This document shows, in pieces, positions 14,712-28,231 of a stretch of DNA of 64,000 nt. The stretch is from Spirochaetia bacterium. Lineage in GTDB: Bacteria > Spirochaetota > Spirochaetia > DSM-2461. The DNA lies in contig CAXXIA010000002.1 of assembly GCA_963666985.2 (NCBI GenBank), forward strand, positions 96,001-160,000, in the 5' to 3' direction. The translations under genes were made by a program, and so were the position numbers. The notes beneath the pieces were generated by a model that was not told the DNA's origin, made no database searches, and worked only from the letters and a program-made list of their open reading frames with translations. Within the stretch, counting starts at the first letter, position 1; each line of letters begins with the position of its first letter.

Positions 14712-14760
14712 TTGACATTTCAGTTCTATTTTACTACATATGAATATATGTTCATATGTA
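14712..14760 (+). promoter_or_regulatory. Sigma70 -35 plus SmtB/CzrA-type operator palindrome
   Basis: TTGACA at 14712-14717; perfect 10-bp inverted repeat TACATATGAA-tatatg-TTCATATGTA at 14735-14760 with the TGAA-N6-TTCA core. Confidence 0.85.
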
Positions 14761-14773
14761 CACGGGTAAAACG

Positions 14774-15127
14774 ATGACGGAACAAAACTGGTGCCGAATC
14801 AATTCGGAAACGGCCGATAAACTTCGAGAAGAGATGCCGATTGAAGAAGAAGTTCAAGATTTGGCCTCTTTATTCAAGGTTTTCGGCGATCCGACGCGAA
14901 TCCGCATCCTGAACATACTTCAGCATAAACCGCTCTGCGTTCACGATCTTTCCATACTGCTGGAGATGCAGCAGACCGCCGTTTCTCATCAGTTGAAAGT
15001 GCTGAGGCACAACCGGCTGGTTCGATTTTATAGGGAAGGAAAAATGGCGATCTACTCACTAAACGACGAGCATATTGAACGGCTGATGTCCATCGGCATC
15101 GAACATATTAAGGAAATCTATTCATGA
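14774..15127 (+). CDS. ArsR/SmtB metal-sensing repressor with alpha5 site
   Basis: LFKVFGDPTRIRIL, LCVHDL, AVSHQLKVLR, DEH-x10-H-x2-E. ATG 14774 is preferred because ATG 14756 lies inside the operator. Confidence 0.93.
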   Translation: MTEQNWCRINSETADKLREEMPIEEEVQDLASLFKVFGDPTRIRILNILQHKPLCVHDLSILLEMQQTAVSHQLKVLRHNRLVRFYREGKMAIYSLNDEHIERLMSIGIEHIKEIYS

Positions 15128-16407
15128 CGACATTTCTGACCGACCTCGGTCTTTCAACATTGAACCTCTTTGTAGAAATAGCGAAATATCTGATTTTAGG
15201 ACTCTCGGTCGCGGGGATTATGAGTGTTCTGATCAGCAAAGCCTTTGTGGCGCGCCATATCGGCAAAGATAATTTCGCATCCGTTTTAAAAGCCTCGCTG
15301 CTGGGAGTTCCCCTCCCCCTCTGTTCCTGCGGAGTGGTGCCCACCGCCGCTTATTTGCGCCGTTCCGGTGCTTCCCGCCCGGCGCTCATGGGGTTTCTCA
15401 TTTCCACGCCTCAAACAGGAATGGACAGCATTTTCGCCACATACGGCATGCTCGGACCTTTATTCGCGATTTTTCGTCCGCTTGCCGCCCTCTTAACGGG
15501 ACTTCTCGGCGGTGCGATATCGATGCTGGCCGGAGGTAAAGAATCCGAGGAAGGGAAACTCCGGGAAGAAAGCACGGAGGATCAGGAAACCCGAGGATTG
15601 CCGGAGAAAGTTCGCGCTGCCGTCACCTATGCATTCGGAGAAGCTGTGGACGACATCTCGGTGCATTTTCTGGTAGGACTCTTCATCGCCGGTCTCATTA
15701 CCGTTCTCATTCCGGACGATTTTTTCGCCGGACGCATGATCGGAAGCGGTCTGCCCGCCATGCTGCTGATGGTGGCTATCGGCATTCCGATGTATGTCTG
15801 CTCCACATCCAGCATTCCAATCGCCGTGGCTTTGATTGCCAAAGGAATCAGTCCCGGGGCGGCCTATGTTTTTCTGGTGGCCGGTCCTGCGACGAACGCG
15901 GCATCTCTTGCGATTTTGACGAAGGTGCTTGGAAAACGGCAGACGATTCTCTACGTGCTGAGCATTATCATCGGCAGTCTCATGTTCGGTCCGCTGATGG
16001 ATTTCATCATTCGCATCACGGGCGGAATGCCGCCTGTAATGAGTGCGCATATGCATTCGGCCGGATTCACATGGTTCGACTATACTCTGGCGGGCTTTCT
16101 GACCCTCCTGATTCTGATTTCATTAGCAAGGAGATTTATACACATGAACAAAACGAGAACCGACCGCGATGCTTCGCACCGGAATGCGGATGATTCCAGA
16201 GAGTTCACCATAGACGGGATGTCATGTCATCACTGCGCGGCCAATGTGGAAAGCGCGCTGAAAGAGATTCCGGGAATCAAGACCGTTCAGGTAGATCTTG
16301 AGGCCAAACGCGCCGTTCTTACCGGGGATGCGGAAGATGCGCTGATTCATCAGGCGATTCACAATGCCGGATATACGGTCGTAGAACACCCATCTTCGGG
16401 AAAATAG
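15124..16407 (+). CDS. DUF318/SO_0444-type metal efflux permease with C-terminal HMA domain
   Basis: GVPLPLCSCGVVP, FLISTPQTG, PMYVCSTSSIP, FLVAGPATN; C-terminal IDGMSCHHCAANVE. Confidence 0.9.
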   Translation: MTTFLTDLGLSTLNLFVEIAKYLILGLSVAGIMSVLISKAFVARHIGKDNFASVLKASLLGVPLPLCSCGVVPTAAYLRRSGASRPALMGFLISTPQTGMDSIFATYGMLGPLFAIFRPLAALLTGLLGGAISMLAGGKESEEGKLREESTEDQETRGLPEKVRAAVTYAFGEAVDDISVHFLVGLFIAGLITVLIPDDFFAGRMIGSGLPAMLLMVAIGIPMYVCSTSSIPIAVALIAKGISPGAAYVFLVAGPATNAASLAILTKVLGKRQTILYVLSIIIGSLMFGPLMDFIIRITGGMPPVMSAHMHSAGFTWFDYTLAGFLTLLILISLARRFIHMNKTRTDRDASHRNADDSREFTIDGMSCHHCAANVESALKEIPGIKTVQVDLEAKRAVLTGDAEDALIHQAIHNAGYTVVEHPSSGK

Positions 16408-19759: not shown

Positions 19760-20740
19760 TCAGCCGGCCAGAGCCTTGATTTCCCGATACTTGGAAAGGT
19801 CGCTGTAGAGCTCGCCTTTGTAGGGATTGCGGCCGGTTTTCTTGATTTTGATAATCATGTAAATCAGAACCGCCACGTTGACGGCCAGTGCGGCGATGCC
19901 CCAGGCCCAATAGATTCCGCTTTTGTAGGTGGATGTTACCGCCCAGCGTCCGGTGTCCTGGAAGGAGGGAAAGGTTTGAGCGAACATGCACCAGAGAGCC
20001 AGGGTTTGTGCGCGGTGCTGGAGCCAGGCGCCTTTTCCGATGGTAAACGCGCAGAGCGTGGGAGCCAGAAGCAGGGCGAATCCGCAGTACCATGAATGGG
20101 TGGGCAGGCAGTTGTAGGTGTAGGTGAAGTTCCACAAATCGTAGGCGATGATCCAGAACCAGAGCATGTCGGGCCAGAGCATGTCGCGGCTTGTATCCTT
20201 GGCGGTTTTCCGGCGGATAACAATGCCGAACCATCCGGTAATGGTGATGATATTGATGATGCCGGCGATGGCGTTCAGGTAGTTCCAGGGTCCGCCGAGA
20301 ACAAAAACGCCGTCATCGGCGGTGATGCCGCCTCCGGAATACTGCATTCCAACCTGGAAATCCCGCACACAGGCTTCCAGAATGTTGATGGCCAAAATCA
20401 GGGGCGGAAAAACCAGGGCCCATTTTTTCTCGTACAGGTGCCATTCGTTGCCGCCGACTTTGTCTTTTCCTTTCAGGTGGCGGATCAGCCAGAAACCGAT
20501 ACATCCGGCGGTGGAGGAATACACTTTGGCCAGGTGAAACCAGTCGGTGTAGGTGGTTTCACTGAATATGGTTATCCACAGAACCGTCAGGATAATCGGC
20601 AGAATAACGAAGGCGAAGAATCCGGCGTATTTGAAGCGCCGGGTTATTTCGTTGGCGATGAATAGTACGGCAAAGACCAAAAGCCACACGCCCCAAACGG
20701 ATGCGCCGGTTGCTCCTGCGGCATAATTGAATGTGAACAT
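19760..20740 (-). CDS. DUF5692 family polytopic membrane protein
   Basis: WFHLAKVYS, ILAINILEACVRDF, DMLWPDMLWFWIIAYDLWNF, WLQHRAQTLALW; many TM helices. Confidence 0.75.
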   Translation of the reverse strand: MFTFNYAAGATGASVWGVWLLVFAVLFIANEITRRFKYAGFFAFVILPIILTVLWITIFSETTYTDWFHLAKVYSSTAGCIGFWLIRHLKGKDKVGGNEWHLYEKKWALVFPPLILAINILEACVRDFQVGMQYSGGGITADDGVFVLGGPWNYLNAIAGIINIITITGWFGIVIRRKTAKDTSRDMLWPDMLWFWIIAYDLWNFTYTYNCLPTHSWYCGFALLLAPTLCAFTIGKGAWLQHRAQTLALWCMFAQTFPSFQDTGRWAVTSTYKSGIYWAWGIAALAVNVAVLIYMIIKIKKTGRNPYKGELYSDLSKYREIKALAG

Positions 20741-20903
20741 AGCGTTACCACTCTCTGGAAAAAGATTATCAACCTCAGAACATTAAGAACTTGGGTTGGT
20801 TTTTTTCTTTTTGAACTTTTTCTTTAAAAATTTGGATGGCTCGCGATCGGCGAATCCATGGCAAACCAAGGGCATTGTAATCCATCTTCACTTTTTTACA
20901 ATT

Positions 20904-20916
20904 GGAACACTGTTAA
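20904..20916. promoter_or_regulatory. Candidate TetR operator copy upstream of the DUF5692 gene
   Basis: gGAACACTGTTaa, which shares GAACACTGTT with the palindrome at 21683. Confidence 0.5.
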
Positions 20917-20967
20917 ATTCGTTATTTTTTTATTGTTTCTTTGAAGGATTAATCGAAAACAGTTTTT

Positions 20968-21555
20968 TTAGGAGGTTTCCCCGCAGAAGGAATCCAGAAT
21001 AAGGCTTAAGTCTTCCCGGAGTTTTTCATTAAGATTGTATCGGCCGCTAAGAAGGCACCATTCGAAGAGAACACCCCGCCCGCTTCTGATCAGCCGGTCG
21101 ATCAAAGCATCGATATCGGTTCCGGTCCGCAAATCCGACCGCCCGGCGTTCATCACTTTTCTCAACTGAACATAAATGGGCCGATCCGTTTGAATGGCAT
21201 ACTTTTGAGAGCTGGCGAGCAGATAAAGGTAGCTTTGGGTAACCACTTCCCATCCAAGGTCTTCCAATATTCCGCCGGCTTCTTCAAAAAGATAAAGAAC
21301 ATTCGCTTTGAGGTCTTCTCCGTAATGATGATGGAGTATTTTTTCCTCCCAGAGCAAATCCAGCTGCTGGTGGATTGTGTTGATGATTTCTTCCTTGGAT
21401 TTAAAGTAGTAGTAAAAACTGCCTATGGAAATTGAAGCGGCGCCGCAAATATCCCGAACCGACACGGCGGCAAAGCCGTATTTTTGAAACAGGGACATTG
21501 CGCTGAGGGTGATTTTCAATTTGGTGGCAATAGATTTTTTTTTCTTTTCATTCAT
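20968..21555 (-). CDS. TetR/AcrR family regulator
   Basis: AMSLFQKYGFAAVSVRDICGAASISIGSFYYYFKSKEEI. Start placed at MNEKKKKS; the longer ORF overlaps the hypB promoter. Confidence 0.92.
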   Translation of the reverse strand: MNEKKKKSIATKLKITLSAMSLFQKYGFAAVSVRDICGAASISIGSFYYYFKSKEEIINTIHQQLDLLWEEKILHHHYGEDLKANVLYLFEEAGGILEDLGWEVVTQSYLYLLASSQKYAIQTDRPIYVQLRKVMNAGRSDLRTGTDIDALIDRLIRSGRGVLFEWCLLSGRYNLNEKLREDLSLILDSFCGETS

Positions 21556-21682
21556 GGATTTGTGAAGATTCAGTAAAAATACACCAAAACTCTTCAGAAC
21601 GAACAGATTCCCGGTCATCTTAAGAACAAATAATAGATAATTAATTATTGAAAAGTCGCCGTTTCCATGAAATACTGATATT

Positions 21683-21695
21683 CGAACACTGTTCG
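21683..21695. promoter_or_regulatory. Candidate TetR operator immediately before the hypB RBS
   Basis: Perfect palindrome CGAACA-C-TGTTCG in the divergent tetR/hypB intergenic region. Confidence 0.6.
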
Positions 21696-21709
21696 GTTTG
21701 GAGCGTCCA

Positions 21710-22381
21710 ATGAACAAATTTAAGGTAATTGAAATTAAGAAAAGCGTTTATGAAAGCAATGACAAGAAGGCTGAGAAACTCCGGGCGGAGCTGAAATCCG
21801 ACGGAATTTTCCTCTTGAATCTCATGTCTTCACCCGGATCGGGGAAAACCACCACCGTGATGGGAACAATTGATGCTCTCAAAGAACACTTTGCGATTGC
21901 GGTGCTGGAAGCCGATTTGGATTCCGACGTGGACGCGGCCACCGTTTCCGCTTCGGGGGTGAAAGTAATTCAGCTCCACACCGGCGGAATGTGCCATCTG
22001 GATGCCGGCATGACCGAGCAGGGAATTAATGCGATCGGTTTGGAGGGAATCGATTTGGCGATTCTGGAAAACGTCGGGAATCTGATTTGCCCGGCCGAAT
22101 TTGATACCGGCGCTTCCAAAAGCGCCATGATTCTCAGTGTGCCCGAAGGCGATGATAAGCCTCTGAAATATCCGAACATGTTTACCAAAGTAGATGCCCT
22201 GATTGTAAACAAAATGGATGCCGCCGAGTTTTTTGAGTTTGATCTTGAAGCCGTGAAAAATCGGGTTGAAAAATTGAATCCGGGGGTAAAGATTTTCCCC
22301 ATGTCGGCGAAAACCGGCGAGGGAATGAAAGAATGGGCCGACTGGCTGGCTTCGGAAGTTATCAAATGGAAGGAGAACTGA
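21710..22381 (+). CDS. hypB: Nickel-incorporation GTPase HypB
   Basis: LNLMSSPGSGKTT, TGGMCHLDA, ENVGNLICPAEFDTG, SVPEGDDKPLKYP, NKMD, SAKTGEG. Confidence 0.95.
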   Translation: MNKFKVIEIKKSVYESNDKKAEKLRAELKSDGIFLLNLMSSPGSGKTTTVMGTIDALKEHFAIAVLEADLDSDVDAATVSASGVKVIQLHTGGMCHLDAGMTEQGINAIGLEGIDLAILENVGNLICPAEFDTGASKSAMILSVPEGDDKPLKYPNMFTKVDALIVNKMDAAEFFEFDLEAVKNRVEKLNPGVKIFPMSAKTGEGMKEWADWLASEVIKWKEN

Positions 22382-22384
22382 CAA

Positions 22385-25150
22385 ATGGATGTCTTTGCCG
22401 ATCTGAAAGCCGACACAACCGATCAATCAAAAATGTGGTTCCCGGAAGGGTATGAATGCAAGTACAACGAGAAGATTCTGGCTCTGGCGAATATTATCGG
22501 AAACCGCAAAAGCGCCAAGTCATCCTATACATGGGAAGATCCGGAATATGTCATCCTCGAAGCCGGTATCGATGATGAAATGGCGGATGTGGCTTTGGGG
22601 CTTAAACTGTATGAAAAACAGACCGCGGAGGATATCTCCAAAATCGTAAACAAGCCCGTGGATCACTGCCATGAGCAGCTGATGAAGCTGGCCGTGTACG
22701 GTGCCTGTTTTGTGAATACCGTTGACGGCAAGGATGTGTTCTGGGCGGAAACCTGGATTCCCGGCACCATGGAAGTAATTGTAAACAATCTTGATGTCGT
22801 GAAGAAATATCCGATTGTCGGTTATGCCATGGAAGCCTACGGCCGGGTTCGCGGACCCAAGAGTTCCGGTGCATTCCGTCCGGGGATGGGCCTGATGCGG
22901 GTGATTCCCATTGAGTCGGCCATCGACGGGAACAGCCATAGAGCATCCTACGAAGAGGTTTCCAAATATCTCAATGATAACGATGTTTTTACTGTAACCG
23001 ACTGTTCCTGCCGAACCGACCGTGAAGCCATGGGCGAAGGGTGCGGCCATTTAAAGGAAGATATGTGTATCCAGATGGGACACGCCGCCGAATACTACAT
23101 TAAAACCGGCCGCGGACGGCAGATTACCCGGGAAGAAGCCTTTGAAATTATTAAAAAAGCCGAAGAAAACGGGCTGATGCACCAGATTCCGAATCTGGAC
23201 GGCAGCGGAAAAACCCATGCCATCTGTAACTGCTGCGGCTGCAGCTGCCTATCGCTCCGAACGGCGGAAATGTTTAAAAACACCGACATGGTACGCTCCA
23301 ACTACGTGGCCCGGGTGGATACCTCGCAATGCGTGGCCTGCGGTCAGTGCGTGGAATACTGCCCTGTAAACGCTTTAAGATTGGGCCAAAAACTCTGTTC
23401 TTCCAAAGAAGTTGTTACGGATATCACCACCAAAGATACTCCCCGCGATCTGAAATGGACCGAGGAATACTGGAACACCGAGTACAGAACCAACCGGGAA
23501 AATGTGGTGGAGAGTGGAACCTCCCCCTGTAAAACCGCATGCCCGGCTCATATCGGGGTTCAGGGCTACATCAAGTTGGCCGCCCAGGGTAAATATATGG
23601 AAGCTCTGGAACTGATTCGCCATGAGAACCCGCTTCCGGCCGTTTGCGGCCGTATCTGCAATCGGCGCTGCGAGGATGCCTGCACCCGCGGAAGCATCGA
23701 TGATCCGATAGCCATTGATGAAATCAAGAAGTTCATCGCCGAAATCGAACTGGATAAATCCAAACGTTTTGTTCCGAGAATCCGTCATGATTACAGCGAC
23801 AAGAAGGTGGCCATTATCGGTTCGGGCCCGGCCGGATTATCCTGTGCCTACTATCTGGCTCTGGATGGTTATACCGTTACCGTTTTTGAAAAAGAGAGCC
23901 GCCTCGGCGGTATGCTGACCCTCGGACTTCCGAATTTCCGTTTGGAAAAAGATGTGGTGGAAGCGGAAATCGACATGATCCGCGACATGGGCGTGGAGTT
24001 TAAAACCGGAGTTGAAATCGGTAAGGATATTTCCATCGCCGAACTTCGCGATCAGGGATATAACGCCTTTTATGTGGCCATCGGTGCTCAGGGCGGAAGA
24101 ATGATTGGAGTTCCCGGAGAAGACGCCGAAGGCGTGATGAGCGGAATCGAATTCCTCCGTATCATTAATCAGGATCAAACTTACAAACTTTCGGGCAACA
24201 CGGTTGTGATCGGCGGCGGAAACGTGGCCATCGATGTTTCCCGGACGGCGGTTCGGGCCGGAGATGCAAAGGTGAGCCAGTTCTGTCTGGAATCCCGTGA
24301 GCAGATGCCGGCACTGGAAGAAGAAATTGTCGAGGCCGAAGAAGAAGGCATCACCATCAGTACCAGCTGGGGCCCGAAACAGATTCTTGTTGAAAACGGC
24401 AAAGTTAAAGGTATCGAGTTCAAAAAATGTACCGCCGTATTTGATGCGGAAGGAAAATTCAATCCCCAGTATGATGAAAATGACTGCATGAGCGTGGAAG
24501 CCGACAACATTCTTCTTTCCGTCGGACAGTCCATCGTATGGGGCGATCTCCTGAACGATTCCAAAGTGGAACTTCGCGGTAACGGCGGTATCATTGCCGA
24601 TGATTTTACCTTCCAGACGGCGGAGAAAGATATTTTTGCCGGAGGGGATGTCTATTCCGGTCCCCGTTTTGCCATCGATGCGATTGCGGCCGGCAAGCAG
24701 GCGGCCGTTTCCATTCACCGTTTTGTTCAGCCGGGACAGAGTTTGGTTCTCGGACGCGACCGCCGGGTGTACAAAGAGCTGGATAAAGAGGCCGCCGTTA
24801 TTGAGAATTATGATAATACTCCGCGCCAGCGTCCTTTGAATGTAACGAGCGAAGAAAAACAGTCCCGAAGTTTCAACGATCTCCGGGGTGTGTTTACGGA
24901 AGATCAGCTGAAGAAAGAAACGGAACGCTGTTTGGGATGCGGGGCTACCATCGTGGATTCTTATATGTGCGTGGGATGCGGTCAGTGTACAACCAAGTGT
25001 CAATTCGATGCCATTTCCCTTGAGCGTGTATACGACGGCGAGGGTGTTGAATACTTTGACTTAAAGCCGAATGTTGTAAAACAGATGGTAAAACGGCAGG
25101 CCAAGATTGCCATCCGGAAGGTGAAAGATTCATTTAAAGGTGATAAATAG
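22385..25150 (+). CDS. Multi-domain Fe-S flavoprotein oxidoreductase: Cys-rich N-terminal domain, split ferredoxin and GltD-like pyridine nucleotide-FAD module
   Basis: DCSCR, ICNCCGCSC, CVACGQCVEYCP, CKTACP, CGRICNRRCEDAC, GSGPAG, GGGNVA, CLGCG, CVGCGQCTTKC. Confidence 0.9.
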   Translation: MDVFADLKADTTDQSKMWFPEGYECKYNEKILALANIIGNRKSAKSSYTWEDPEYVILEAGIDDEMADVALGLKLYEKQTAEDISKIVNKPVDHCHEQLMKLAVYGACFVNTVDGKDVFWAETWIPGTMEVIVNNLDVVKKYPIVGYAMEAYGRVRGPKSSGAFRPGMGLMRVIPIESAIDGNSHRASYEEVSKYLNDNDVFTVTDCSCRTDREAMGEGCGHLKEDMCIQMGHAAEYYIKTGRGRQITREEAFEIIKKAEENGLMHQIPNLDGSGKTHAICNCCGCSCLSLRTAEMFKNTDMVRSNYVARVDTSQCVACGQCVEYCPVNALRLGQKLCSSKEVVTDITTKDTPRDLKWTEEYWNTEYRTNRENVVESGTSPCKTACPAHIGVQGYIKLAAQGKYMEALELIRHENPLPAVCGRICNRRCEDACTRGSIDDPIAIDEIKKFIAEIELDKSKRFVPRIRHDYSDKKVAIIGSGPAGLSCAYYLALDGYTVTVFEKESRLGGMLTLGLPNFRLEKDVVEAEIDMIRDMGVEFKTGVEIGKDISIAELRDQGYNAFYVAIGAQGGRMIGVPGEDAEGVMSGIEFLRIINQDQTYKLSGNTVVIGGGNVAIDVSRTAVRAGDAKVSQFCLESREQMPALEEEIVEAEEEGITISTSWGPKQILVENGKVKGIEFKKCTAVFDAEGKFNPQYDENDCMSVEADNILLSVGQSIVWGDLLNDSKVELRGNGGIIADDFTFQTAEKDIFAGGDVYSGPRFAIDAIAAGKQAAVSIHRFVQPGQSLVLGRDRRVYKELDKEAAVIENYDNTPRQRPLNVTSEEKQSRSFNDLRGVFTEDQLKKETERCLGCGATIVDSYMCVGCGQCTTKCQFDAISLERVYDGEGVEYFDLKPNVVKQMVKRQAKIAIRKVKDSFKGDK

Positions 25151-25155
25151 CTTCG

Positions 25156-25497
25156 ATGCATGAACTGGGTATCGTGATGCATATCGCAGAAACGGTTCTG
25201 GAATTGATGAAGGAAGAAGAGCTGACCGAGGTACGGAAAATCGTGCTTCAGGTTGGCGAACTTTCCGCCGTTATTCCCCGCTATCTGATGGAATGCTATC
25301 CGGCGGCCGTTGATGGAACGGCGCTGGAAAAAACCGAGCTGGAGATAGAGATTCTTCCCGGTAACGGTAAATGCCGCGCTTGCGGGGAAGTGTATAATCT
25401 TCTCAAAAATAAGCGAATCTGCCCCAAGTGTGGGGCGGATCATTTTGAATTCTTAAGTGGGGATGAATTCAATTTGAAAGAGATTCTCGCCTGTTGA
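25156..25497 (+). CDS. hypA: Nickel metallochaperone HypA
   Basis: N-terminal MHE Ni motif, VGELSAV, CRAC...CPKC zinc site, GDEF. Confidence 0.95.
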   Translation: MHELGIVMHIAETVLELMKEEELTEVRKIVLQVGELSAVIPRYLMECYPAAVDGTALEKTELEIEILPGNGKCRACGEVYNLLKNKRICPKCGADHFEFLSGDEFNLKEILAC

Positions 25498-25714: not shown

Positions 25715-26344
25715 TTATACGCCCGATGCCGGTTTGACGGCCAATTCTCCGGCGGCGGCGAACCATCCGGGAGAATCTTCAACAGTGATGCCGCCAAATC
25801 CGTATTCCGCCAGTTTGGACCGGAAGTATTCCACCGGCGGCAGGATGTCTTCGGAGACTTCCCGGCCTCTCCCGATATGGTACTCATTCAATTCCCGCCG
25901 GCTTAATGAATGCGTGATGACTAAGGTTCCGCCGACCTTCAGATAAGAAGCCGCGTTTCTGAAGACGGGATCGAACCGATCAAAATGAGGAAATGTATTG
26001 AAAATGATGACCTTGTCGGCTGCAATTTGACGGTTTATCGGTTCCAGAAACGACTTATGGATGATGTCCAGGGAGGGAAACTTCCTTTTCAGGATTTTTA
26101 CCATTTCGGCGGAATTCTCCACCGCATAAATATGCTTCACCCCGGCGTTCCGATAATACGGTATGGCAATCCCGGTTCCCGAACCGACGTCCATCACCGT
26201 ATCGTTTACCCCAATATGGAACTCCGTGATTATCCGCTCAAGAGCCGCATGATCCTCTCGGCGAATTCGAGTATCCCAATCCGGAGCATTCCGGCAGAAG
26301 AATGTGTTTCGGTGTAACATAAACGGCTGCAGATTAAGGTTCAT
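25715..26344 (-). CDS. Class I SAM-dependent methyltransferase
   Basis: FF...APDWD, VMDVGSGTG, FPHF, LKVGGTLVITH. Start reassigned because the listed ORF extends into the upstream gene. Confidence 0.85.
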   Translation of the reverse strand: MNLNLQPFMLHRNTFFCRNAPDWDTRIRREDHAALERIITEFHIGVNDTVMDVGSGTGIAIPYYRNAGVKHIYAVENSAEMVKILKRKFPSLDIIHKSFLEPINRQIAADKVIIFNTFPHFDRFDPVFRNAASYLKVGGTLVITHSLSRRELNEYHIGRGREVSEDILPPVEYFRSKLAEYGFGGITVEDSPGWFAAAGELAVKPASGV

Positions 26345-26535: not shown

Positions 26536-27000
26536 TCAGCCCGCGGAAATCGCCCCTGTTTTCGTATACACAAAACTTGTCAGGATTCCCAGGATCAGCA
26601 TCGCGATAACAGAATTGATCAGCTGGACCATGATGAGCGGGACCGGATAGCGAAAGAGCATGAATTGATTGAAGGCCTCCGGAATTGTTTTGATAAGAAT
26701 GACGGCCAAAGCGAAGAGCACGCCCTTGGCAAGCCAATTTCCCGGCAGCAGGGAAAATGCAACAACGAAAAGAAAGATAAAGAGCGCCACAAAGTACACC
26801 CCGAGAGCCGCGTTGAGTCCGATATAAACCCCGAGACCTCCGAAATCGCTCGTCTCTTTCATCACCGCCGGGACATTCAGCTTCTTGAAAATCCCGGATA
26901 CAAGGGGATTTACGTACAGAAGATTACCGACAATCATGTTGGCGACAAGAATCACGGGACTCCAGGCGAACACCTTCCAGAGAACGATCGAATGATTCAT
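26536..27000 (-). CDS. Four-TM hypothetical membrane protein
   Basis: AGGAGG RBS; four hydrophobic segments. Confidence 0.75.
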   Translation of the reverse strand: MNHSIVLWKVFAWSPVILVANMIVGNLLYVNPLVSGIFKKLNVPAVMKETSDFGGLGVYIGLNAALGVYFVALFIFLFVVAFSLLPGNWLAKGVLFALAVILIKTIPEAFNQFMLFRYPVPLIMVQLINSVIAMLILGILTSFVYTKTGAISAG

Positions 27001-27011
27001 TTAAACCTCCT

Positions 27012-27081
27012 TTCAACAGCTGTTTCGCAGCGCGAAATAGCAAGCCTTCAACAGCTGAATCGCAGCGCGATTTAGCGAGCC
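27012..27081. repeat. 2 x 35-bp tandem repeat, each unit a 10-bp hairpin with compensatory changes
   Basis: ttcaacagctgTTtcgcagcgcgaAAtagcaagcc / ttcaacagctgAAtcgcagcgcgaTTtagcgagcc. Confidence 0.9.
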
Positions 27082-27084
27082 TCT

Positions 27085-27861
27085 TTATAGAATCACCGAC
27101 CAAAACGGCCGGGATTTTTCCGTCGCCCTTGCGTCAAAGTTCCGAAACTCCGCTCTGAGTTTCCCCGCCGCCCATCCTTCGGGCAGAAGGCACCGAGGAA
27201 GCAGCGGATCTTCCGCAAGAACCTTCACAATCATGTCGCCGGTTTGAAACTTGGCCGCGAAGGCCTCTTCCGGTCCGGCCGAATCCAGTAAAACCCGCGC
27301 TTTTTCCGCCCCTTCAACAGCGGCCTTCATCCGATCGTTTAATCTCCCAAGGTCCCACATCCGTATCGCATCCCCGGCTCCGATTTCCGGATGAACTTTG
27401 GAAACCATCCATCGGCAGGTTCCATCCTCAATCCATTCGCTGAAAACGCTCTCCAAACGCTCCTCCGATTGCCATGGCCGAACCCAAAGTCCCGGATTCA
27501 AAGGGCGCAGGGCCTGATCCGTCAGTGCTCTCCGGAGCCGATGCCTCTCAGAACCCGGCGCACCGGATTGGAAAAAGGAAAGAAGGAAATAATCGCCGTT
27601 CCATCCTTCCCATAACGGCTCTGAAAAACGCCTGCTTATCCGGCCGCCGTACCTGCGGGCCGATTCTGAAAACACATAGATCGCTGTTTTTCCCTCCTTA
27701 CGGACAGTCAGCATTCCTCGTGTACTCATACGGGAAAGAACGGACCGAAGATTTGTTTCGGAAACACCGATCGGCCGCAAAAGTTCTTTCAGCTGAGAGA
27801 AACGAAGGCCCGAATATCCCAAGGAAGCAAACACCGCGAAGACGGCTTCGGATTCCTTCAT
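27085..27861 (-). CDS. PaaX family transcriptional regulator
   Basis: wHTH GVSETNLRSVLSRMSTRGML, WEGWNG, RHRLRRAL, PGLWVRP, C-terminal DPLLPRCLLPEGW; TATAAT 6 nt before the ATG. Confidence 0.88.
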   Translation of the reverse strand: MKESEAVFAVFASLGYSGLRFSQLKELLRPIGVSETNLRSVLSRMSTRGMLTVRKEGKTAIYVFSESARRYGGRISRRFSEPLWEGWNGDYFLLSFFQSGAPGSERHRLRRALTDQALRPLNPGLWVRPWQSEERLESVFSEWIEDGTCRWMVSKVHPEIGAGDAIRMWDLGRLNDRMKAAVEGAEKARVLLDSAGPEEAFAAKFQTGDMIVKVLAEDPLLPRCLLPEGWAAGKLRAEFRNFDARATEKSRPFWSVIL

Positions 27862-28231
27862 AAATCCATTATATCTCATATTATTTTCATTTGCTGTTTT
27901 TTTGTGATTTTTAAATGGTTTTTTAATGCCTCTGCAAACGGAGATCTGCGGACACGGCATCAACGCCGGCTTCCCAAGCCGCCTGCCGCATAATCTTCAT
28001 CTTTATTTCCGCTGCAAAACCGGTCGCCGGAGATAAAATGCTGCCGACCGAGCTATCTTCCCAAACCGCCGGTCACGAAAAACAATACCGGACATCGAAA
28101 CCAAGATGCCGCCTGCCGCCTCTACTTCCCCATCCCCCGGCTTCCAAACTGGACGACGATCCTTTCACTATGTATCTTTTAAACTCAAAAGAGTGCTGTT
28201 CACGATAACATCGCTCCAACGGAGGAAAAAT

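Follow-up and report, generated by a model that had tools for sequence, protein, structure and literature searches.

Which enzyme do the nickel proteins HypA and HypB serve where no NiFe hydrogenase is encoded beside them? This question is raised by a locus at positions 19760-25497 of a 64,000-nt stretch of DNA from a Spirochaetia bacterium (contig CAXXIA010000002.1, positions 96,001-160,000; the whole stretch is called the window below). On its plus strand, hypB (21710-22381), a gene for a 921-amino-acid (aa) Fe-S flavoprotein (22385-25150) and hypA (25156-25497) follow each other at intervals of only 3 and 5 nt, as confirmed by the coordinates of the open reading frames (ORFs). An earlier note, made from the sequence alone, had read these genes as a candidate new nickel-dependent system with the flavoprotein as the client, and its family names (HypB, HypA, TetR, DUF5692, Fe-S flavoprotein) were confirmed by Pfam and NCBIfam scans. 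The system is not new. The family, its gene neighbourhood and the nickel hypothesis are already described in Kronen et al. (2023, mSystems, PMC10134865), and the locus is a further member of that family. We consider it reasonably probable that it is a TetR-controlled operon for an IsrA-family (clade 9) reductase with dedicated metallochaperones, in which NAD(P)H would feed a Ni/Fe-S site loaded by HypA and HypB and non-activated C=C bonds would be reduced, as proposed for IsrA.

Linkage and descent of HypA and HypB

The linkage of the hyp genes to the reductase was conserved among the best 80 of 524 relatives, which share 66-85% identity and are close kin rather than independent cases. The gene directly 3' of the reductase was hypA in all 71 loci with downstream DNA (the other 9 of the 80 end at the match), hypB lay 5' in 76 of 80, and DUF5692 was present in 39. 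Among the 51 loci that extend 3 kb or more to each side, hypA was found in 51, hypB in 47 and DUF5692 in 27. This linkage is far above chance. The nearest named reductase loci are Spirochaetia records with 84-85% identity. Across 301 genomes of the phylum, HypA occurs in 112 and the N-terminal domain of the reductase in 18 (E ≤ 1e-30), and all 18 carriers have HypA. Within two host-lineage families, HypA and the reductase occur in identical genomes (11 of 40 in family f26, 2 of 34 in family f46), and none of these 13 carriers has a NiFe large-subunit match.

Both proteins retain the metal-binding residues that had been recognized at the outset. HypB, of the type without an N-terminal metal site, scores 242 bits against a TIGR00073 cut-off of 121 and has C95-H96 and C127; its likely start is the ATG at 21710, which is preceded by GGAG. 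HypA lies above the PF01155 cut-off and below that of TIGR00100 (70.6 versus 88.1), and it contains the MHE motif and both CxxC motifs, H2 and E3 of the Ni-binding N-terminus being invariant in 48 of 48 sequences. These are the families and metal-binding residues also found with NiFe hydrogenases and Helicobacter urease, but neither HypD nor a urease client was found in the host genome, and this HypA belongs to a separate, reductase-linked lineage. In a HypA tree of 65 rows and 114 columns (18 of the 80 loci plus the phylum copies, with context labels presumed from motifs), 34 reductase-linked copies and two unlinked copies from reductase-bearing genomes share one side of a branch with 100/100 support and a length of 1.41. 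None of the 12 hydrogenase-context copies and none of the 17 other unlabelled copies lies on that side. Furthermore, three genomes with both systems (G241, G313 and G331) have separate HypA copies on opposite sides of the tree.

It is very unlikely that the linkage is incidental and that the hyp genes serve a hydrogenase, a urease or another nickel enzyme elsewhere. The absence of hydrogenase, urease and carbon monoxide dehydrogenase (CODH) clients, first remarked on for the window, extends to the entire genome (4.86 Mb, 3 contigs, 93.1% complete), where profile searches gave no match to the NiFe large subunit (PF00374), urease alpha (PF00449), HypD (PF01924) or acetyl-CoA synthase (ACS) beta (PF03598). 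The NiFe maturation set is represented in this result by HypD and the large subunit, and HypC, HypE and HypF were not searched for. The single match to the prismane family we take, from its N-terminus, to be a hybrid cluster protein and not a CODH, and three ORF regions carry FeFe-hydrogenase motifs. The genome has one HypA, whose presence and phylogeny follow the reductase. On the other hand, a client gene could be absent from an assembly that is 93% complete. Some PF00374 match is present in 17 of 71 reductase-bearing genomes (8 of these matches are weak and cover only the first 70-80 profile positions) and absent from 54, with completeness not known for 40 of the 71. Two LarA-like proteins in the host are other probable nickel clients, which weakens the clean claim that there is no other; LarA has a larC cluster of its own. 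Conserved linkage, a separate HypA branch and a genome without a NiFe hydrogenase match answer two of the three refuting conditions of the earlier note and support the proposal that the oxidoreductase is the client of HypA and HypB, while its nickel is something that we infer.

Other genes of nickel or metal traffic were seen in the host genome (G000) and its relatives. The larC/larE/larB-like genes lie with their own FecCD-type ABC transporter at G000:C2:899401-906749, and the LarA-like genes lie away from them, at C2:2001115 and C2:2940869. A second, divergent GTPase of the HypB/UreG superfamily (CobW/HypB-type) is encoded with an ABC ATPase, divergently from a FecCD-type ABC transporter (G000:C2:2429386-2433374), and this locus is possibly a metal-uptake unit. 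One relative has hypB and the reductase without hypA, converging on larE/larB/larC-like genes (L198:2508-8947, in genome G258). Another carries two tandem hypB-reductase-hypA units with divergent members (L062:5298-13924), and a third has two tandem hypB genes (L137:3768-5112).

Domains and candidate metal site of the reductase

IsrA, the putative isoprene reductase of Acetobacterium wieringae ISORED-2 (VUZ27132.1, 901 aa), is reported by Kronen et al. (PMC10134865) to be co-induced by isoprene with HypA and HypB in a strain without NiFe hydrogenase. Their model contains four [4Fe-4S] clusters and a fifth, six-cysteine (Cys6) site, for which they propose nickel insertion. Among 988 IsrA homologs, the neighbours they list include HypA (73%), HypB (56%), DUF5692 (40%) and TetR (21%), and Spirochaetes are named among the hosts. 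Our comparison is based on this published layout and the published residue positions, not on an alignment with the IsrA sequence. Both proteins have around 900 aa, with an N-terminal part of about 270-300 aa that lacks a Pfam domain, followed by Fer4, PF14691, PF07992 and Fer4. The pairs C180-C182 and C254-C256 given for IsrA correspond to C207-C209 and C281-C283 of the reductase. In both proteins the two pairs are 74 residues apart, and a uniform shift of 27 in the numbering also accounts for the first ferredoxin motif. C228 and C288 would then be the remaining two cysteines of a six-cysteine site matching that of IsrA. Shared, too, as far as the published description goes, are an operon with hypA and a type-1 hypB, TetR and DUF5692 among the family neighbours, and a host without NiFe hydrogenase.

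Strictly speaking, however, the locus is no isr operon. The five-gene arrangement is not found, there is one hypA where the IsrA operon has two, DUF5692 and TetR are present, and the host genome has no stand-alone Cys6 ferredoxin gene. The reductase also lacks the 26-residue insertion located near 756-782 in IsrA; its segment 770-849 measures 79 aa, as in most homologs. The tree labels in the supplement of Kronen et al., in the part available, include one Kineothrix protein, and the K. alysoides genome encodes a single homolog, 76% identical to the reductase, which may be the protein so labelled.

In the reductase, Pfam matches (Fer4, Fer4_20 and Pyr_redox_2) start at residue 308, and residues 1-307 have none. 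An unnamed domain spans about 20-305, and ferredoxin motifs at 316-326 and 862-872 flank an NfnB/GltD-like FAD-NAD(P)H module (377-790). The GltD-like module that had been suspected was borne out by both sequence and structure. In the predicted structure (pLDDT 92.6), residues 377-877 match NfnABC/StnABC, NfnB, GltD and dihydropyrimidine dehydrogenase (DPD), with which the reductase shares, at 35-37% identity, the FAD-NAD(P)H and two-cluster DPD-II module of these enzymes and of the NfnABC/StnABC large subunits. The comparison with 8oh5_C gave a Z-score of 45.8 and a root-mean-square deviation (rmsd) of 2.1 over 471 residues. None of these matches reaches the first 370 residues, and the NfnB, GltD and DPD relatives, which align only from about residue 377, do not cover the Cys6 domain. 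We know of no hyp genes associated with any of these enzymes. CLE stands in place of the YRR-type motif found in the aligned NADPH enzymes, so the electron donor is probably NADH rather than NADPH. For the N-terminal domain, matches in the ESM Atlas were unnamed clusters, and searches with the whole predicted structure were filled by the flavin module.

The same architecture bears on the suggestion, made in the earlier note, that the protein may resemble the flavanone-cleaving reductase Fcr of Eubacterium ramulus and might reduce polyphenols. Both are NAD(P)H/FAD/Fe-S enzymes of anaerobes, Fcr being an oxygen-sensitive, NADH-dependent flavoenzyme, and we found no likeness more specific than this. 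The predicted Fcr of C. butyricum is described, in the part of that paper available, as an FAD oxidoreductase that contains an alpha/beta barrel and is encoded beside flr and phy genes. The reductase has neither such neighbours nor a barrel match: families of the Old Yellow Enzyme (OYE) type match only residues 465-626, with low scores, OYE structures match only 411-796, and the predicted secondary structure of the N-terminal part does not consist of eight alternating strand-helix units. No match to the phloretin hydrolase family was found in the host genome, and 3 of 35 reductase-bearing genomes have one. The Fcr literature available in part (PMC11170127, PMC8398226, PMC8084988 and PMC13515148 among it) contained no mention of hyp genes or nickel. 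We rejected an Fcr-like identity on architecture, using the description of the C. butyricum protein and no direct alignment with Fcr (AGS82961), and regard a flavanone-cleaving function as highly improbable.

A survey of cysteines was made with 150 matches from a library clustered at 50% identity, of which those of at least 300 aa were aligned. C207, C209, R210, C228, G263, H266, C281, N282, C283 and C288 are invariant in 26 of 26 homologs of at least 480 aa, and an alignment of 76 rows agrees for the six cysteines and H266. The 66 homologs of 320-445 aa, which are mostly stand-alone proteins, keep the six cysteines, while H266 drops below the 85% cut. Invariant in the fused, Hyp-linked form and below this cut in the stand-alone proteins, H266 may be a ligand or proton donor of the former. 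The stand-alone proteins include a large family (P0183-P0270) of about 360 aa that has the same six-cysteine domain and ferredoxin motifs, lacks a flavin module and is annotated only as ferredoxin.

HypA and HypB might also serve the reductase with a metal other than nickel (Zn, Fe or Co), or assist the assembly of a fifth cluster made of Fe-S alone, for example a double cubane. We find this rather unlikely, and a purely Fe-S Cys6 site is possible. The Cys6 site occurs in stand-alone proteins for which Kronen et al. (PMC10134865), in the part available, report no association with HypA or HypB, and these authors liken the site to the P-cluster and the double-cubane cluster as well as to the A-cluster of ACS. 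The length of the branch that carries the linked HypA copies fits a non-nickel metal too. The invariance of H2 and E3 in HypA and the fully kept cysteine and histidine residues of the HypB G-domain speak against it, and so does a UreH-like membrane protein in the operon of three relatives. This protein is encoded directly 5' of hypB (L146:6476-7138, L093:3067-3741 and L095:117-761), has what we take to be the HxxxxDH motif of such proteins, and is a probable nickel permease. Co-folding of HypA with residues 15-345 of the reductase gave 0.39, 0.01 and 0.00 in three runs and was used as evidence neither way.

Proposed reaction, regulation and DUF5692

In the reading that we favour, a nickel-dependent C=C reductase, NAD(P)H would reduce the FAD of the NfnB/GltD-like module, and electrons would run via four [4Fe-4S] clusters to a fifth site formed by C207, C209, C228, C281, C283 and C288, with H266 in the same domain. 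HypB would pass nickel, with GTP, to HypA, which would load the Cys6 site. There, a hydrophobic substrate with a non-activated or conjugated C=C bond may be reduced at that bond, as an electron sink or for detoxification. The substrate would release TetR from a palindrome 5' of hypB, and DUF5692 may act as a membrane accessory that handles the substrate. The transporter role suggested for it in the earlier note is neither borne out nor contradicted.

Several observations weigh against this reading, besides the close kinship of the surveyed loci. No CbiM or UreH-like nickel permease was found in the host genome. The six cysteines are kept in stand-alone proteins without Hyp neighbours, so the Cys6 site alone does not imply nickel. 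The reductase lacks a neighbouring hypA in some cases, namely the copy in G337 and a single copy in each of G258 and G270. The HypB tree (48 rows, two skipped) reproduced the split seen with HypA, with weak support (64/81). According to the published account, isoprene is not reduced by Acetobacterium strains whose homologs are 47-49% identical (PMC10134865); activity is therefore not transferable by homology. In the literature, no purified enzyme of the family, IsrA included, was found for which nickel content or C=C reduction is reported.

A nickel-dependent reductase with other two-electron chemistry, such as reductive cleavage or NAD(P)H:acceptor oxidoreduction, is unlikely. The published alkene assignment, as far as it is available, comes from co-induction seen by proteomics in a single species. 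In addition, the N-terminal domain lacks a characterised relative, and the regulators vary, a GntR/FadR-like protein replacing TetR in most Bacillota loci (64 of the 80). Against this, the experimental links of the family that have been published all indicate diene reduction, as far as the available parts of the reports show: they concern two A. wieringae strains and Pelotomaculum enrichments fed with isoprene, in which transcripts of hypA, hypB and an oxidoreductase rise (two 2026 preprints).

The TetR-family regulator (PF00440; 20968-21555, minus strand) has about 195 aa when read from a likely ATG at 21555, picked by comparison with two relatives (L144 and L145), to a stop ending at 20968. 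A TetR gene and a DUF5692 gene had been described as lying divergently; TetR is indeed divergent from hypB, while DUF5692 is not itself the divergent neighbour and sits behind TetR on the same strand, 227 nt downstream. A perfect 13-bp palindrome at 21683-21695 is the putative TetR operator. It lies just 5' of the ribosome-binding site of hypB, downstream of a sigma70-like promoter candidate for the three genes (21648-21676, plus strand), and is the only perfect copy in the genome. The palindrome is also perfect in four TetR-bearing relatives (L144, L145, L090 and L092), has one mismatch in L002 and is degenerate in L001. All 5 aligned intergenic regions keep the -35-like TTGA of the promoter candidate, and counts of promoters (7 versus 6.5) and terminators were at chance level. 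A possible degenerate copy of the operator, with three mismatches to the 13-mer, lies 5' of DUF5692 (20904-20916), beside a promoter-like site on the minus strand (20901-20874); the shuffle figure of 2/100 is optimistic, the pattern having been chosen after the data were seen. No copy of the operator was found close to the remote DUF5692 genes in G016, G022, G035 and G399.

DUF5692 (19760-20740, minus strand; PF18948, 395 bits) is an integral membrane protein of 326 aa with about nine long helices. It was predicted by AF2 with a pLDDT of 91.9 and contains many invariant polar residues within the membrane protein, the buried invariant ones being Asn, Asp, Lys, Arg, Tyr and Trp. No clear structural match was found with VIA-align, where the best, the seven-transmembrane receptor Ste2 (Z 8.9, rmsd 5.1, 198 aligned residues), reflects generic seven-helix bundles, and ESM Atlas features, a PDB profile search and Foldseek gave nothing usable. 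These results are no evidence for a new fold or for a receptor function.

DUF5692 is encoded in 31 of the 301 phylum genomes; 15 of these belong to the 18 reductase carriers, and 16 lack the reductase. A CrtISO/phytoene-desaturase-like flavoprotein is encoded near it in 10 of the 30 other genomes, as a rule together with an FAD/2Fe-2S reductase and in many cases with a distant DUF5692 paralog. All four genes form a module in six loci (L129, L131, L134, L141, L147 and L148), of which no description was found in the DUF5692 literature. The CrtISO-like module and hypB-reductase-hypA stand back to back in G116 and G261; in G258 an acyltransferase gene comes after the module. Genomes of family f41 (L117-L125) that have neither HypA nor the reductase encode DUF5692 (63-69% identity) by itself, close to a MarR gene, so it also works without the reductase. 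The host itself has a module that is 30% identical and lacks DUF5692: five co-oriented genes (L197, G000:C1:519548-525537) encode a CrtISO/retinol-saturase-like flavoprotein, an FAD/2Fe-2S reductase, DegV, fatty-acid kinase A (FakA) and PlsY, which look like genes for the uptake and modification of exogenous fatty acids.

This second context of DUF5692 hints at an unsaturated lipid substrate. Isoprene is probably not the substrate here, and an unsaturated fatty acid or a terpenoid is our best guess. Oleate hydratase, reported in two Acetobacterium clusters in the part of Kronen et al. available (PMC10134865), points the same way. Its presence in only 8 of 35 reductase-bearing genomes, for which there was no control set and which do not include the host, speaks against a lipid. 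So does the lack of enrichment of fatty-acid genes around the reductase loci. Homologs of the host PlsY, FakA and DegV occur in none of the other fetched loci, acyl-CoA ligase and thioesterase genes only in L137, and PlsC-like genes in 4 loci. The literature search found no fatty-acid link for a family enzyme. A more specific proposal, which we put forward as doubtful, is that the DUF5692-bearing IsrA branch is the machinery by which unsaturated fatty acids or isoprenoid lipids are biohydrogenated under anaerobic conditions. DUF5692, as an isomerase-like membrane enzyme or presenter, would supply a conjugated diene for saturation at a Ni-[Fe-S] Cys6/His site, which would be a nickel active site of a new class, and DUF5692 would plug into either the reductase or a CrtISO/retinol-saturase-like flavoprotein with its ferredoxin reductase.

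Around the locus, the GC content gave nothing pointing to a recent island. A class I S-adenosylmethionine (SAM) methyltransferase of about 208 aa (Pfam match; 25715-26341, minus strand) converges on hypA and is a recurrent neighbour among spirochaete relatives (a homolog in 6 loci); it is probably outside the hypB-reductase-hypA unit. Upstream of it, at 26536-27963, lie a PaaX-like regulator and a 154-aa membrane protein without a Pfam match. At 14756-16407, 3 kb off the cluster, an ArsR regulator and an ArsP_1 permease fused to an HMA domain are encoded, probably for a metal resistance that has nothing to do with the locus.

Meaning for the family

The nickel idea is already in print and the locus is one of hundreds, so alone it adds little. 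What is added here is the reductase-linked HypA branch, the co-occurrence of HypA and the reductase in families f26 and f46, the invariance of the six cysteines and H266, and the palindromic operator. The locus is a clean test case: the genome has one HypA, no NiFe hydrogenase, urease or ACS was found in it, and TetR, together with its candidate operator, could be used for inducer screening. Few classes of nickel enzyme are known. If HypA and HypB load nickel into the Cys6 site, the family would be a new class, and if the proposed reaction is true, it would be an alkene hydrogenase with a metal centre and no need of an activating group, relevant to anaerobic lipid and terpene turnover and to biocatalysis.

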